This document shows, piece after piece, positions 2,620 to 29,685 of a DNA stretch of 64,000 bases. Below the pieces are notes generated by a model. That model saw nothing but the letters and a program-made list of their open reading frames with translations, had not been told where the DNA came from and made no database searches. Both the position numbers and the translations under genes were made by a program. This DNA comes from a virus. The DNA lies in IMG/VR virus record IMGVR_UViG_3300038556_000043, positions 19,736-83,735 of that record, one strand, 5' to 3'. How positions within the stretch are numbered: position 1 is the stretch's first letter; every line of letters starts with the position of its first letter.

Positions 2620-3079
2620 TGAGTTTTTCAGCTTCTAAGCGTTTTTCTTTGGATACCCTGTCACACCAATCATTTACCCAATTGCGTTTCGTCTTGGTGT
2701 GTTTATGGGCTTTTACATGGCGAAAACGGGTATGTTCTACTTGCAGATGGTACTCAACTGCTTCCAATGCTTGAAAAGCTTTTTCTGCATTGGATCCTTT
2801 TTTTGGCTTTTGAATGGCAAACATGGCAGACTTTGAATCGCTATTGATAACCAGCCAGGGTGAACGAATAAACTGGCCTTCTTTTGACAGCTTTTCCAAT
2901 GCCATTCTGATAGCAATAATTTCGGCTTCGTGACACGATTTCAAATTGAATCCATATCCGCTACCGAAAAACCGCTTATTTTCGCCATAGGTAATCCAGA
3001 AAGCGTATCCGTAGGTACCTTCCTTGTAGCTGGCGTCTGTATTAATGGTAACACAGCCAGCGGTATAAACCTGTTCCAT
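2609..3079 (-). CDS. rnhA: ribonuclease HI family protein
   Basis: INTDAS, HEAE, INSDS, HVKAH and N.WCD give the D-E-D-D catalytic set; start reassigned to MEQVY (3079) because the track start lies in a terminator U-tract. Confidence 0.85.
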   Translation of the reverse strand: MEQVYTAGCVTINTDASYKEGTYGYAFWITYGENKRFFGSGYGFNLKSCHEAEIIAIRMALEKLSKEGQFIRSPWLVINSDSKSAMFAIQKPKKGSNAEKAFQALEAVEYHLQVEHTRFRHVKAHKHTKTKRNWVNDWCDRVSKEKRLEAEKLNGN

Positions 3080-3109
3080 ATTGATTAATTTTCTTATAGG
3101 ATTGGACAT

Positions 3110-3147
3110 AAAAAACACCGGGGAACTTCTACCTAACCCGGTGTTTT
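3110..3147 (-). terminator. intrinsic terminator (bidirectional-looking)
   Basis: AAAACACCGGG-loop-CCCGGTGTTTTTT. Confidence 0.75.
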
Positions 3148-3352
3148 CCGCACATTACATTTGCATTAGGCTCCTTGAGCTGCTTGCAATAAATTAATTA
3201 GATATCCATATAGATTCATATTTGGTGAAAGAAAGGGACAAACCCAAACCACAAACAAGCAACAAAACCAAAAAAGCAACAAACTTACAATTGGATTTTT
3301 GGTACTAGAATGTGGGCAAACCACACACAATATTAATCAATTTTCTTATTGA

Positions 3353-3928
3353 TTAAATAAAGCCGTAGGAATTTCTTTGCCTTTCGTACCAGAATGTATT
3401 ACCCAATGTATCTGTTTCGTACATCTTATGATTATACCTAAACATTCTTTCCATGCAAACCTCCCTGTTTGTTTCAAAGTAATGCTTATAAGAATATCGC
3501 AATACCTGCAATCGCCAGAAAAGAACGTGATGCTTTATATCCATAAACCAAATCTTATCCCCTTGCTTATGGTAAATGGGCTTCTCCAAAGGGCTGTAAT
3601 ATCTATCGGTTATGATTGCTCGCATCCTGCGTTGGTCTTCTGCCTTTCTTTTTTCCTCAAAATGATTTTTTCTGAATTCCTTTAATCCAGACGGATCAAA
3701 AAATATTCTGTACAATTCAATCTCAGTTGGAGTTTCATCTTCAAAACGCATATACATCTTTCGATGGTCACCGTCAGCCATTACTATGTAGTGAATAGCA
3801 TTGTCGTCATCAAAAAGCTGCAAGCCGGCATTTAGATGAATACCGGTTTGAATCATATCCTGATCATCGGCAAACAACTGGCGAAGCAGATTAAGCTTCA
3901 TCTGGGCAATTTCCTCATGATTTTCCAT
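3353..3928 (-). CDS. hypothetical protein
   Basis: Likely start MENHEE (3928), overlapping upstream stop. Confidence 0.7.
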   Translation of the reverse strand: MENHEEIAQMKLNLLRQLFADDQDMIQTGIHLNAGLQLFDDDNAIHYIVMADGDHRKMYMRFEDETPTEIELYRIFFDPSGLKEFRKNHFEEKRKAEDQRRMRAIITDRYYSPLEKPIYHKQGDKIWFMDIKHHVLFWRLQVLRYSYKHYFETNREVCMERMFRYNHKMYETDTLGNTFWYERQRNSYGFI

Positions 3929-12987: not shown

Positions 12988-13614
12988 TTGAATGATCAGT
13001 GAGCAAGAGCAATCGCAAGCAGCCTCGAAACCAAACGCAATCGGGAACCAACCGACCTACCCCAAATCAAAGTACTAAGGACAGTCAGTAGCGTAAGAAG
13101 TAACCGGTAGAGGAGTAACCAGAGGAGAATGAAAAATCAACTCCTATTACATGTTAAACCCAACAGCCGCCGCTCAAACGTCTCAAGCAAATTTTGTCAG
13201 CAGCAAAACAGAGGAAAAGGGCACAATAAGAATAAACTCCTTGTATCTCTTGCTGAGTTCTGTTTGCATCTGTGTGAGGTTCTTGTGTACTGCTATCCTT
13301 ATGTATTGGACATAGTAGTATGTCCCCGGTTCGCGCGTGAACGCGAAAAAAAATGTCCCGAATCTTTAGCACAAGCCTTTGGAAATCAGAATGATGTAAC
13401 GAAAACTTGTGACCGTCCGGTAGGGATGCAGTTAACGATAGCGAAAGATTCAAAGGGTTTCGATCCTAGAAGCGGCCGCGCCTTGCCGAAGGGGATTTAA
13501 CTTTAGCTGTTCCATCTAAGGTAGTTATTTGACGACCCTTAGTAGTATTCGGCGGCAGTTGTGCGATTGTTTTTCAAATCTCCTGCTCTCGCTTCCCGGA
13601 CTTGTGATCAGGTA

Positions 13615-13854
13615 TTACCAGTTAATTCCTGATTGCTTGAATTTGCCAGAGCCAAAAAGACTCAGCTTGTGTTTATCTCTGTTTTGAAGGAACTTGGCTT
13701 TCTTATTGGCAGCTTTCCGTTTAGCCATCTGCTTTCTTTTCTCAGCTTTCTCGGCTTTGACTTCATTGGCCATCTGCAAGCGTTGTTCTTCTGTCAGGGT
13801 TCTTGAGAGAACTTCTGATTTATGCTTGAGATAATTTTCTTTAGATAATTTCAT
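13615..13854 (-). CDS. highly basic Lys-rich small protein
   Basis: MKLSKENYLKHK...KAEKAEKRKQMAKRKAANKKAK. Confidence 0.7.
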   Translation of the reverse strand: MKLSKENYLKHKSEVLSRTLTEEQRLQMANEVKAEKAEKRKQMAKRKAANKKAKFLQNRDKHKLSLFGSGKFKQSGINW

Positions 13855-13918
13855 ATTATCTTGGTGATGCGAATATAAGTACACTAATCAATAATGACAA
13901 AATATTAATCAATATTTC

Positions 13919-13949
13919 TTTGATATTTTTTTTATTACTAATACATTTG
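13919..13949 (+). promoter_or_regulatory. Bacteroidota sigma-A-type promoter
   Basis: TTTG (13919-22), 19-nt spacer, TACATTTG (13942-49). Confidence 0.7.
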
Positions 13950-13953
13950 TGTC

Positions 13954-14039
13954 CCTCCTTAGCCAACTACTGGCGCACTTGGTGAACGACAATCCGGATA
14001 TGGAAGTCCGCAGGTAACCCACTTGCGGACTTTCTTTTT
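13954..14039 (+). ncRNA. candidate ~85-nt small RNA
   Basis: Lies between a consensus host promoter and a strong intrinsic terminator; no usable ORF. Confidence 0.55.
14004..14039 (+). terminator. intrinsic terminator
   Basis: AAGTCCGCAGG-TAACCCA-CTTGCGGACTT-TCTTTTT. Confidence 0.8.
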
Positions 14040-14047
14040 GTATCCAT

Positions 14048-14089
14048 CGCAGTCGCAGTAGCATAACCGCAGTAGCAACGCAGTAGCAA
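14048..14089. repeat. three direct repeats CGCAGTAGCA
   Basis: Copies at 14054, 14068 and 14079 plus a partial copy at 14048. Confidence 0.85.
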
Positions 14090-14100
14090 AGCCGGACGAG

Positions 14101-14128
14101 AAATAGAGGGCTGGCAAAGCCAACCCCT
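14101..14128 (-). terminator. terminator-like hairpin
   Basis: GGGTTGGC-TTT-GCCAGCCC-TCTATTTCTC after the 14165 stop. Confidence 0.6.
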
Positions 14129-14164
14129 TATCCATCATAGGTCATTTCTCATGTATTCATCCCG

Positions 14165-14368
14165 CTACGCAGGTTCTTTGACCAGCTCTATTGCGATGCT
14201 GGTTTTGTTTTCGATGCTGTCAAACAGTTCCAGGATTTGCTTGCGGTCTGCTTCATCGGCTTGCTGCCAATAGGTGACAAACTTGCCAGCGGCTTCGAGC
14301 TGTCTTTGGTATTCTTCGTGTGGCTTGGGCGCGTGGTATTGTGCTTTTAATGCTCTCAGGTATGACAT
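14165..14368 (-). CDS. hypothetical protein
   Basis: 67 aa. Confidence 0.7.
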   Translation of the reverse strand: MSYLRALKAQYHAPKPHEEYQRQLEAAGKFVTYWQQADEADRKQILELFDSIENKTSIAIELVKEPA

Positions 14369-14393
14369 ATTAATTAGGGGAAAGACTGGCGGG

Positions 14394-14708
14394 TTATTCT
14401 AAACCCGTCCAGTCAAGTGATAGATTGTTTTCAGGTAATTGTTCAATGGTAATTTCACCAGCGTATATCTCAGGATTCAAAGACTTGAATGATACATCCA
14501 AGCCCTCGGCAAATCCTTGTTCGTAGCCTAGCTTTTTACCTTCCTCTCGCCCGTTGTCAAAGCCATCCTGATAGGCTCCGTCCAATTGGCGCGAATGAAG
14601 TTCTTCTTGTTGCTGCAAGGTTGCTTCTAGTCTTTGCAATAATTCTTTAGGCGTAACGACGATAATGTCAATGCCCAACAGGAAAAGAATGCGGTTGAGT
14701 TTTTTCAT
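14394..14708 (-). CDS. hypothetical protein with FliH/Yae1-like G-xxx-G repeats
   Basis: DGAYQDGFDNGREEGKKLGYEQGFAEG; start reassigned to MKKLNR (14708). Confidence 0.7.
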   Translation of the reverse strand: MKKLNRILFLLGIDIIVVTPKELLQRLEATLQQQEELHSRQLDGAYQDGFDNGREEGKKLGYEQGFAEGLDVSFKSLNPEIYAGEITIEQLPENNLSLDWTGLE

Positions 14709-15052: not shown

Positions 15053-15538
15053 TTATGCTGCTGCGTCGGCTTCAACCATTGTAGGCTGAGCAACCGGCTT
15101 TGCTGCGCGCTCTGTCTTTGGAGTGTCGCAACGACGTTCCAGTTCAGAGAAGTTCAGCTTTGTGTGTACCCATTCGTTGAACTCATCAACGATCTGTAAA
15201 AGACCGCCAGCTACGAACGTTTCCCGGTTCAGGTTTTGGATAGCACCATTCTCATCGGAGTACTGGTTGATTACAAACATTCCGGGAAGTTCTTTTCCGT
15301 CTTTGTCCTTACCGTAGCCAATGGCGTTTCCGGCAATCTTCTTACCTGCAAGCTTGCTTGGTGTGTCAACATTGGCTTGGCTCATCAGGTTGTCAACCTG
15401 GGCTTTGCCCATGCGGAAGGCCATACGGTTTTTGTTACCGTCAACGGCTTCTCCCCAGAAGCTGTCAAGGATGGATCCTTCTTTAGACTTGGAAACGTTG
15501 ATAGAGGCAATCGCGAATACTAATCCTTGCTTTGTCAT
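15053..15538 (-). CDS. hypothetical protein (possible ssDNA-binding/OB-fold)
   Basis: Start MTKQGL (15538); own upstream motif and terminator; beta-rich N-terminus and low-complexity tail. Function is a guess. Confidence 0.7.
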   Translation of the reverse strand: MTKQGLVFAIASINVSKSKEGSILDSFWGEAVDGNKNRMAFRMGKAQVDNLMSQANVDTPSKLAGKKIAGNAIGYGKDKDGKELPGMFVINQYSDENGAIQNLNRETFVAGGLLQIVDEFNEWVHTKLNFSELERRCDTPKTERAAKPVAQPTMVEADAAA

Positions 15539-15669
15539 AACGGTAAAATTTAAAAGGGTTTTTGGGTTGGAAAACTGTGGTTTACAGCAGGTTACATTTT
15601 GATTACCGCCAATGTGAGGATAGTCAAACCCTTTATTGAAGAGCAAGACAACCTGAGCAAACCAGATAA

Positions 15670-16730: not shown

Positions 16731-17195
16731 ATGGATTACAGGAAATTGGATACAATGTATTTATGGTTGACCGGTAGCAGCATTGATATGGATAAGGAGA
16801 AGGGAAAATTGAAGAAGTTCCCGTTTCGCATTCCGGTAAAGTCACAGGACCAGGTTGAGTACGTGAAAGCTTGCATGGATTTAAACCCTGACATTTTAAA
16901 TGTATGGGTATTCAGTGCTGATTACAAGGAGTTGGTTAAGATGCGCAGTTGGGAGGAGTGGGAAAAATTGAAGCGGTACCGTTGGGATTTAAATACAATG
17001 GGGAGGTTGTTGGAGTTATGGGGGGATCCGAATAAACCGGGAGAATTCAGACCAAAGGGAGGCGCAATTAACTCTTTCAATGACACGGCCAACTATTACA
17101 AGAGTCAGCGCACCGCTATTCAGATGCGTAATGCAAAAGTAGATTCATCTGCTTCGCCGGTAAAAAAACAGAAGTGGAAAAGTTTTAAGGCCTGA
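16731..17195 (+). CDS. hypothetical protein
   Basis: 154 aa, first gene of + strand module. Confidence 0.75.
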   Translation: MDYRKLDTMYLWLTGSSIDMDKEKGKLKKFPFRIPVKSQDQVEYVKACMDLNPDILNVWVFSADYKELVKMRSWEEWEKLKRYRWDLNTMGRLLELWGDPNKPGEFRPKGGAINSFNDTANYYKSQRTAIQMRNAKVDSSASPVKKQKWKSFKA

Positions 17196-22894: not shown

Positions 22895-22928
22895 TTTGTA
22901 AATTATAAGAAAATTAATTTATATTTGC
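22895..22928 (+). promoter_or_regulatory. late promoter for scaffold/MCP
   Basis: TTTG, 21-nt spacer, TATATTTGC with AATTAATT extension. Confidence 0.75.
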
Positions 22929-28998: not shown

Positions 28999-29685
28999 AT
29001 GGCTGATTCAGTAGAAATAATGACCTCGGATAAGATTGTCTGGGCTGTCATTTCCCATTTAATGGGCGGCTTGCAAGCGGTATCCAATCACCCTTTCTCA
29101 GAGGAGTTGATTGCCGACGAGATAGACAACATTCGATTGGAACTGATAAAAAATCCAAAAATTCTTGCAGCCCTTGACTTTCGGCTCATTTCCCAATCGG
29201 TAGGTTGCATTGATGTTCAGAAGGTACCCGATCAGGAATGCGTTGAACTTGGATTTGAAGGATACTTTTGGCGCACAAAAGACAAGCTGCCTAAAATGCT
29301 TACCATTCCTGGCAAACCACTGGTGGATTACATTGGTGCGGCAAACTGGATGCAACGCTACGATGTAATTTCAATGGAGTACCTGGATAGTTTAAGGTAT
29401 GATAAATACCCTGTCCCGGTGGCTTTCTGGATGAATGACTATTTTTATTTTGCGCACCTTCCCAAAAATACCGAAGTAGTTGCTATCCGGGCCCCGTTTG
29501 AGCGGCCTACCCAGATAGTAAAAAAATACTCTTGCTGCAAAGACAATTCTTATCCGATTCCTGGTGAGTTTGTTCAGGGTATCATTCGGAATCTGGTGGA
29601 TAATTACGTCAAATACGGATACTTCCGCAATCCGCAGCCAAACACCCAAGCTTTTATACCTCAGCCACAAGGAGGGGCTAAATAA
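28999..29685 (+). CDS. tail ring protein (putative)
   Basis: Start MADSVE; C-terminal PQPNTQ motif; position. Confidence 0.6.
   Translation: MADSVEIMTSDKIVWAVISHLMGGLQAVSNHPFSEELIADEIDNIRLELIKNPKILAALDFRLISQSVGCIDVQKVPDQECVELGFEGYFWRTKDKLPKMLTIPGKPLVDYIGAANWMQRYDVISMEYLDSLRYDKYPVPVAFWMNDYFYFAHLPKNTEVVAIRAPFERPTQIVKKYSCCKDNSYPIPGEFVQGIIRNLVDNYVKYGYFRNPQPNTQAFIPQPQGGAK

Follow-up and report, generated by a model that had tools for sequence, protein, structure and literature searches.

Within the window, by which we mean the whole 64-kb stretch of DNA analyzed here (bases 19736–83735 of the 104.6-kb IMG/VR record IMGVR_UViG_3300038556_000043), a promoter that begins at position 13919 and a terminator that ends at 14039 most probably delimit a stand-alone, conserved gene for a small non-coding RNA (sRNA). 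It is carried by a crAss-like phage that is very divergent and probably infects Bacteroidota, and it lies at a probable replication origin, in the slot that distant relatives give to a repL gene. Phage sRNAs and origin-adjacent transcripts are a known kind of element; this member and its context are new. Positions are given in window numbering unless prefixed; relatives are cited as L-numbered lineages, and the prefix G000:C1 denotes the whole phage genome, for coordinates outside the window.

The source is classed as a very divergent crAss-like phage on the basis of its terminase, which matches solely crAss-like phages in GenBank, at 23–25% identity (among them phages of Bacteroides, Cellulophaga phi14:2 and IAS virus). 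Terminase and portal both match PHROG families, and an open reading frame (ORF) of 4651 amino acids (aa) is present in the window. Shine–Dalgarno (SD) motifs are scarce, occurring in 6 of the 115 start regions of the phage genome against a background of 9.8%, and TAnnTTTG boxes stand upstream of plus-strand genes, both of which are consistent with a Bacteroidota host. Genes from position 1 to ~16.2 kb lie on the minus strand, with a coding-strand switch near 16.3–16.7 kb. The whole record is labeled 'provirus' in IMG/VR, with a completeness of 70%.

A host-type promoter and an intrinsic terminator delimit the predicted RNA

The predicted promoter (13919–13949, plus strand) comprises a −33 TTTG at 13919–13922, a 19-nucleotide (nt) spacer and the −7 box TACATTTG at 13942–13949. 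The primary-sigma consensus of the Bacteroidota consists of TTTG at −33 and TAnnTTTG at −7 (PMC7366714), and sites were scored as sigma-A promoters when a TAnnTTTG box had TTTG ~19–21 nt upstream. TTTG-19-TACATTTG matches this consensus exactly, as the original prediction had it. Transcription starting 5–8 nt past the −7 box would yield an RNA of ~85 nt (~13955–14039, plus strand), placed in the 310-bp gap between two minus-strand genes, one for a 67-aa protein (14165–14368) and one for a lysine-rich 79-aa protein (13615–13854). A C/U-rich motif, GTCCCTCCTTAGCC (13951–13964, plus strand), lies at the transcript start; the 5′ end of the RNA reads GUCCCUCCUUAGCC, and its start motif can also be given as TGTCCCTCCTTAG.

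At the other end, a terminator scan marks an intrinsic terminator at 14002–14039 on the plus strand, a kind of site defined by a G+C-rich hairpin with a T-run directly after it on the transcribed strand. Its stem (14002–14034) has 14 pairs (7 G–C, 2 G–U) around a 5-nt loop and is followed by TTTTT; the T-run exists on the plus strand only, with none on the minus strand. The strong terminator initially described is therefore present, but the 11-bp stem ascribed to it is only the uninterrupted core of the longer one. The view that the ~85 nt between promoter and terminator hold no translatable ORF is borne out, as the only plus-strand ORFs in the unit are a 22-aa ORF with a GTG start inside the −7 box and a 5-aa ORF with an ATG start, neither of which is retained in relatives. 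The predicted fold combines a weakly structured 5′ half with the terminator hairpin (minimum free energy −28.4 kcal/mol, z −3.6).

The full promoter pattern occurs six times in the window, against 3.3 expected. Three occurrences are intergenic, and of these, two immediately precede plus-strand genes, at 16731 and 22968. Within the 104.6-kb genome, a full promoter is combined with a perfect hairpin of at least 8 bp and a T-run, 30–200 nt away, only twice; none of 60 first-order Markov simulations contained this combination.

No known RNA family accounts for the unit. Rfam, proposed as a check in the original prediction, gave no match at gathering thresholds across the whole window, and a permissive search near the locus gave only chance-level matches (E 0.57 and 4.2), neither of which overlaps the predicted RNA; ARAGORN placed no transfer RNA or transfer-messenger RNA at the locus. 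Searched by DNA, GenBank phages contain no real match to the unit, and scans of IMG/VR and JGI metagenomes with the exact hairpin, repeat patterns, the 18-mer GCAGTAGCAAAGCCGGAC and neighbor-protein patterns gave only coding-repeat or chance matches. With a neighboring protein as query, contigs of GTDB prokaryote genomes gave no match.

Promoter, 5′ motif and hairpin recur in diverged relatives

An identical copy of the unit is present in Logan assembly SRR12951531. Diverged relatives were reached through the neighboring proteins, L003/L004 by way of a 66-aa homologue (66% identical) and L124/L125 by way of a 162-aa homologue (43% identical), the alignment of the latter being too diverged for use in locus scanning. 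The 67-aa protein of L124 is 70% identical to that of the window; overall, the neighboring proteins of these two sRNA-bearing lineages are 43–70% identical to those of the window, and the gene order is the same in both.

In the same slot and on the same strand, L003/L004 and L124/L125 both have a −7 box, a C/U-rich start and a hairpin, with clustered GCAGTAGCA repeats after it. All three lineages have a perfect −7 box (TACATTTG in the window, TATATTTG in L004 and TATCTTTG in L124), and the −33 element matches at three of its four bases in L004 and in L124. All three RNAs start with a (C/U)CCU motif (TATTCCTACCTAG and TATCCCTATCTG in the relatives), and the 13-mer ATCCCTCACCTCA, inside the transcript, is identical in L004 and L124 within surroundings that have diverged. 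The L124 hairpin, an 8-bp stem followed by T8, occupies the same position with a sequence unrelated to that of the window. The hairpin sequences are mutually unrelated, so it is the architecture that has been kept and not the letters. Together, the conserved −7 box, 5′ motif and 13-mer point to selection on the RNA or on its start.

A second promoter-plus-hairpin unit was found outside the window, at G000:C1 ~12445 to 12330 on the minus strand (L233:1535–1645, minus strand). It is laid out as TTTG..TATATTTG AGTCCCTTTACAGCC ... CACTCCCTATC, with a 13-bp hairpin and, 20 nt later, the ATG of a 210-aa gene of unknown family. The start 'TTTG-N-GTCCCT..TTA.AGCC' is common to the sRNA and this second unit and is absent from all 71 other TAnnTTTG sites of the genome. 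The second unit may be a paralogous leader or may carry a common operator.

The predicted RNA ends beside direct repeats of a probable replication origin

Immediately downstream of the terminator lie four direct repeats, GCAGT(A/C)GCA (14049–14088, plus strand, with copies at 14049, 14055, 14069 and 14080), which are candidate origin iterons. All are in one orientation, no further exact copy occurs in the 64-kb window, and no other DNA of the intergenic region is as well conserved (E = 8e-9 against L124). In the window the sRNA would end 5–10 nt short of the first repeat, and in L124 it would end directly at the first repeat. Six lineages, whose neighboring proteins are 32–58% identical to those of the window, carry such repeats at irregular spacing (window 14049–14088, L004:2682–2730, L124:4631–4730, L225:5570–5595, L223:5079–5136 and L224:1835–1864), always at the 3′ end of an opposite-strand unit, be it the sRNA or repL.

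The features sought in an iteron origin were a cluster of at least three direct repeats, an adjacent A+T-rich region, an adjacent initiator gene and a skew switch. The locus has the repeats. It also has an A+T-rich spacer at 13880–13950, with 84.5% A+T compared with 57.2% for the genome, which holds both the sRNA promoter and a divergent one and is a candidate DNA-unwinding region. The cumulative G−C curve has its genome-wide minimum at window position 14188, 2 kb from the coding-strand switch. An adjacent initiator gene is found only in relatives. From the repeats, the repL synteny, the skew minimum, the A+T-rich spacer and a neighboring protein resembling single-stranded-DNA-binding (SSB) proteins, the locus is probably a replication origin.

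Some further resemblances were seen at the repeats. DnaA-box-like sequences, TATCCATC, picked out by eye on both flanks, are at chance expectation for that stringency and were discarded. The terminator stems resemble inverted iteron cores, GAGTCGCA..TGCGACTC in L124:4739–4762 and AGTCCGCA..TGCGGACT in window 14002–14034, the chance level of one such 8-mer being ~0.05; a protein that binds the iterons might also use the hairpin DNA as a palindromic site.

More distant relatives fill the slot differently. In L223, L224, L225 and L127, whose 162-aa homologue is 32–37% identical to that of the window, a RepL-like gene (PF05732) occupies the place of the sRNA on the same strand, with E-values of 9e-8, 4e-4 and 3e-7 for three of the lineages and a weaker 0.016 for L224. 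The genes lie at L225:5572–6060 (minus), L223:5167–5760 (minus) and L224:1885–2415 (minus), and L127 has three paralogues, at L127:1958–2784 (minus) and 3057–3419 (plus). In three of these four lineages the repeats are at or just past the repL stop codon: two ATCGCAGTAGCA copies overlap the stop in L225, GCAGTCGCA-type repeats lie just past it in L223 (three exact copies by motif scan and a fourth, ACAGTCGCA, by eye), and L224 has two GCAGTAGCA copies. A hidden Markov model (HMM) search of the 104.6-kb genome with PF05732 found no RepL, and tblastn with the RepL proteins of six relatives returned nothing below E = 0.5 in that genome. A RepL remnant at the locus was considered and rejected, as a frame-tolerant HMM search there came back empty. 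The sRNA with its 67-aa neighbor (three lineages) and repL (four lineages) look mutually exclusive.

This arrangement suggests the main rival to the base-pairing role favored below, an account in which transcription as such, or the RNA 3′ end, would serve the putative origin by opening the A+T-rich spacer or supplying a primer; the clade of the window would have lost the coding part of repL and kept only the promoter-proximal transcript. Phage P1 repL/oriL, pAMbeta1 repE-ori, ColE1 RNA II and the origin promoters of T4 and T7 would be analogues. The account draws on the position of the unit, in the slot and on the strand of repL in L223, L224, L225 and L127, three of which have a repL that leads straight into these repeats; on the closeness of the RNA 3′ end to the repeats in the window and in L124; on the skew minimum at this locus; and on the 84.5% A+T of the spacer between the divergent promoters. 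As the window genome has neither repL nor a remnant of it, an origin here must also work differently. RepL-linked origins have, in addition, already been proposed for crAssphage (PMC10983915). The strong terminator, however, would free the RNA before the repeats, the opposite of what priming from an R-loop or transcription through the origin needs, and a conserved internal 13-mer is unexpected if transcription alone matters. We consider this account somewhat unlikely.

A bolder proposal is that, in one crAss-like clade, a host-transcribed sRNA, possibly together with the 67-aa protein, functionally replaced RepL at an iteron origin, the RNA licensing, priming or timing initiation at the GCAGTAGCA repeats. 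It cites the terminator stem as a pair of inverted iteron-like half-sites (AGTCGCA..TGCGACT in L124 and AGTCCGCA..TGCGGACT in the window). We give it little probability; if true, it would mean that an RNA-dependent phage origin evolved from a protein-dependent one.

The minus strand of the repeats invites yet another reading, a pair like those of type I toxin–antitoxin systems, in which the sRNA would be the antitoxin of a hydrophobic 59-aa peptide encoded from 14138 to 13959. Minus-strand ORFs do cross the repeats and the stretch antisense to the sRNA, one of 59 aa in the window, whose N-terminal half is hydrophobic and leads into KKK, and one of 57 aa in L124. The repeat unit TGCTACTGC is, however, stop-free in every frame, which makes an open frame automatic, and the repeats are read in three frames, with spacings such as 14 and 11 nt that are not multiples of three. 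The corresponding L004 ORF has only 20 aa, and the peptides are unrelated outside the repeats. The window ORF lacks its own promoter and begins before the terminator of the 67-aa gene is reached; in the lineages with RepL, it is the repL stop codon, on the opposite strand, that these repeats overlap. The toxin ORF was rejected because its frame is open by construction, leaving this reading extremely unlikely.

An antisense or base-pairing role is the favored explanation

The best explanation of the whole is that host RNA polymerase makes the sRNA, which acts by base pairing or as an antisense RNA and is comparable to the oop RNA of phage lambda; we hold it at a little under even confidence, and the mechanism proposed within it slightly more tentatively. 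In phi14:2, a model phage of the crAss-like group, an injected virion polymerase reads the early genes, and host RNA polymerase reads the middle and late genes from primary-sigma promoters (bioRxiv 10.1101/2020.03.07.982082). A host-type promoter facing the early block suggests that the sRNA would be made when host RNA polymerase is in use, transcription proceeding rightward from the A+T-rich spacer, against the flow of the early operon. Base pairing is favored because an unstructured 5′ half and an intrinsic terminator are also seen in validated Bacteroides sRNAs, and the RNA would act through this free 5′ half.

The original prediction had offered cis-antisense control of the basic 79-aa protein. 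The promoter of that gene, also of host type, lies at 13870–13901 on the minus strand (TTTG at 13901–13898, a 20-nt spacer and TATATTCG at 13877–13870), back to back with the sRNA promoter; a sigma-70 style scan also marks 13900–13872 on the minus strand, and relatives have a perfect TATATTTG at the same place and on the same (minus-equivalent) strand, so this divergent host-type promoter is conserved. The predicted starts, near 13865 for the 79-aa gene and near 13955 for the sRNA, are ~90 bp apart and point away from each other, which rules out direct antisense overlap with the gene's own messenger RNA (mRNA). A homologue of the 79-aa protein is, moreover, absent from the L124 lineage, although L124 retains the sRNA, and this form of control is not supported.

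The only possible antisense partner is instead read-through from the upstream 67-aa gene. The transcript of that gene would end at a hairpin at 14107–14127 (minus strand, with equivalent hairpins in L004 and L124), whose weak T-run makes read-through plausible. An early transcript reading past this terminator, over the repeats and toward the 79-aa gene, would be fully complementary to the sRNA; duplex formation or polymerase collision would then cut or stop the read-through and keep the origin repeats clear. With no rep gene present, read-through past 14127–14107 is the only transcript that would supply the complement which an oop-like RNA or a countertranscript requires. Pairing of the sRNA with the terminator of the convergent 66/67-aa mRNA was also considered, from 7–8-nt matches seen by eye in three lineages, and was dropped as not significant against shuffled sequences (P = 0.70, 0.08 and 0.05).

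In trans, the conserved C/U-rich motif may also pair with purine-rich sites around start codons. Targets were predicted with RNAduplex in phage genomes, partly carrying out the target search first envisaged for the RNA, and pairings were indeed predicted, but none is conserved across lineages. The L124 sRNA forms ~30 nt of pairing with GGGGGAGGATG, an outlier at −36.8 kcal/mol compared with −27.0 for the next best. This target is the start of an uncalled 60-aa Cys-rich ORF (MKRLRCYCCG..., L124:7990–8172, plus strand) that exactly fills an intergenic gap and has a strong SD sequence, of which there are few. The sRNA may act in trans or as a decoy.

A narrower version makes the sRNA a trans-acting mimic of the anti-SD sequence, pairing with those few ribosome-binding sites of phage or host mRNAs that are strong and of GGAGG type, in a host phylum that does not normally rely on them. 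The motif, CCUCCUUA in the window and CACCUC in relatives, is one that we take to resemble the 3′ tail of 16S ribosomal RNA. The rarity of SD-like motifs in the phage fits such a role, as do the L124 pairing above and the pairing of the window seed with a single strong SD, AAGGAGGGGC, of the gene at 29685 (−16 kcal/mol, top of the 115 start regions). The two predicted targets are, however, unrelated genes, that of L124 having no homologue in the window genome; the window 'SD' also serves as codons of the upstream gene (QGGAK), and any C/U-rich RNA scores well on any G-rich site, in a search that covered phage targets. This version is very unlikely.

Several observations weigh against the favored antisense or base-pairing role and its conserved setting. 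The best overall target of the window sRNA, inside a C5-methyltransferase gene, is not an outlier and was set aside as chance-like; its best match at a start codon, that of the gene at 29685, falls inside the coding part of the preceding gene; nothing in the window genome corresponds to the L124 target; and the RNAduplex search found no trans target conserved across lineages. The 13-bp L004 hairpin has no T-run and so does not qualify as an intrinsic terminator, three independent sequences are too few for a covariation test, and the skew basin is broad (~13200–14600). Between the 5′ motif and the hairpin, the body of the RNA shows no conservation across lineages, and the 5′ motif, being at the start site and common to a protein-gene leader, could be a DNA operator or initiation element and not an RNA seed.

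The last two points would also suit an RNA without function, whose promoter is a remnant of the repL promoter or one half of a divergent pair and whose hairpin blocks stray antisense transcription. The body varies in sequence as well as in length (~70, 85 and at least 110 nt), distant relatives have a repL that the window genome does not, and the 5′ motif, shared with a protein-gene leader of the same genome, may belong to the promoter or operator. Yet neither the repL promoters (TAATTTTTG) nor the repL leaders of L223 and L225 are like the sRNA promoter or 5′ motif; three lineages retain a perfect −7 box and a hairpin although the remainder of their intergenic DNA cannot be aligned; and the 13-mer identical in L004 and L124 lies well inside the transcript. 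We regard a leftover or insulator of this kind as unlikely.

Neighboring genes and other features of the region

The 67-aa protein (14165–14368, minus strand) is 66–75% identical across lineages and is found only in those that bear the sRNA, with no homologue in the RepL lineages. Its predicted structure has three helices (predicted local distance difference test score, pLDDT, 78); a Rop-like nature was considered and discarded, as a fold search gave no PDB match. The longest contig in the cluster of this protein is 684 kb, and the Logan contig with the phage is 105.9 kb.

The 162-aa protein (15053–15541, minus strand) is conserved throughout the seven lineages. A confident model of it (pLDDT 83) yields weak but consistent matches to SSB and oligonucleotide/oligosaccharide-binding folds (E ~0.02), and it may be a divergent SSB protein beside the origin.

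The lysine-rich 79-aa protein (13615–13854, minus strand) matches no family and has a weak homologue in L004 only. Near its C terminus, KLSLF resembles, by eye, the beta-clamp-binding motif QL(S/D)LF; the L004 homologue does not have it. Downstream of the minus-strand promoter of this gene, ~560 nt at 13052–13614 (~900 nt in L124:4960–5858) contain no credible ORF and are not conserved in DNA between lineages; a T-arm-like GGGTTTCGATCC occurs at ~13455 on the plus strand, and Rfam found nothing in this stretch. The gene caller does place a 123-aa plus-strand ORF at 13129–13500, against the earlier statement that the sRNA is the sole plus-strand unit in a 16-kb minus-strand block, but that ORF has no family support.

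A further promoter class, (A/T)-rich ..TTATCT-TATATTTG-CTA, occurs in uniform copies at window positions 22920, 35496, 40377, 46608 and 60654 (plus strand) and 60641 (minus strand). It precedes plus-strand structural genes, including that for the 4651-aa ORF, mostly with no clear −33 TTTG, and these sites are likely middle or late promoters read by host RNA polymerase.

Discussion

A close parallel is the oop RNA of phage lambda, a 77-nt RNA transcribed from the promoter pO, antisense to the 3′ end of cII and next to ori-lambda. Like oop, the RNA described here is short, has its own host-type promoter and intrinsic terminator, would be transcribed against the main early operon beside an iteron-type origin, and would meet its antisense partner only on transcripts arriving from the opposite direction. 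The two have no sequence or structural homology, and, unlike oop, the window RNA overlaps no annotated coding region, only a possible read-through RNA. Its promoter is of Bacteroidota type, and the early operon that it opposes is probably read by the virion RNA polymerase.

Small RNAs made from host promoters at plasmid origins, such as ColE1 RNA I and RNA II, R1 CopA and the pAMbeta1 repE transcript, control or prime initiation. The predicted RNA is likewise small, with a host-type promoter and a place at a probable origin. It differs from countertranscripts in having no antisense overlap with a rep leader or pre-primer, there being no rep gene, and from primers in the terminator that stands between it and the repeats.

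Among RNAs of the Bacteroidota, the intergenic sRNA GibS of Bacteroides thetaiotaomicron has a single-stranded 5′ seed of 30–50 nt (PMC7366714). The window RNA resembles sRNAs of this type in its TAnnTTTG promoter, intrinsic terminator, low structure and long single-stranded 5′ region (PMC7366714); unlike GibS, it is phage-encoded, and it matches no Rfam model. The early region of phi14:2 contains highly expressed non-coding intergenic RNAs (bioRxiv 10.1101/2020.03.07.982082), which likewise are non-coding transcripts belonging to a crAss-like phage's early or replicative module. Those RNAs are long and sense with the early genes, whereas the sRNA is short, antisense to its block and preceded by a host-type promoter.

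RepL genes with adjacent predicted origins have been described for the prototypic crAssphage, Carjivirus communis (PMC10983915), and the distant relatives of the window phage, with a PF05732 gene in this slot and repeats at or after its stop, conform to that pattern. The window phage itself departs from it, having no repL and, in its place, a small RNA unit and a 67-aa gene. P1 repL/oriL is a further RepL-linked origin.

We know of no crAss-like phage sRNA that has been characterized, or origin that has been mapped experimentally, and the literature searched held none. The locus offers a concrete candidate for each: a predicted sRNA, and an origin marked by conserved 9-bp repeats, an A+T-rich spacer between divergent promoters and a GC-skew minimum. 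Relatives with repL and relatives with the sRNA and the 67-aa gene, in the same slot, form a natural comparison, and this contrast makes testable how replication starts in these abundant phages and how transcripts of the host polymerase interact with the early program of the virion polymerase. Even if the RNA were merely a by-product, the unit would still usefully annotate how a deep-branching crAss-like lineage uses promoters and terminators.

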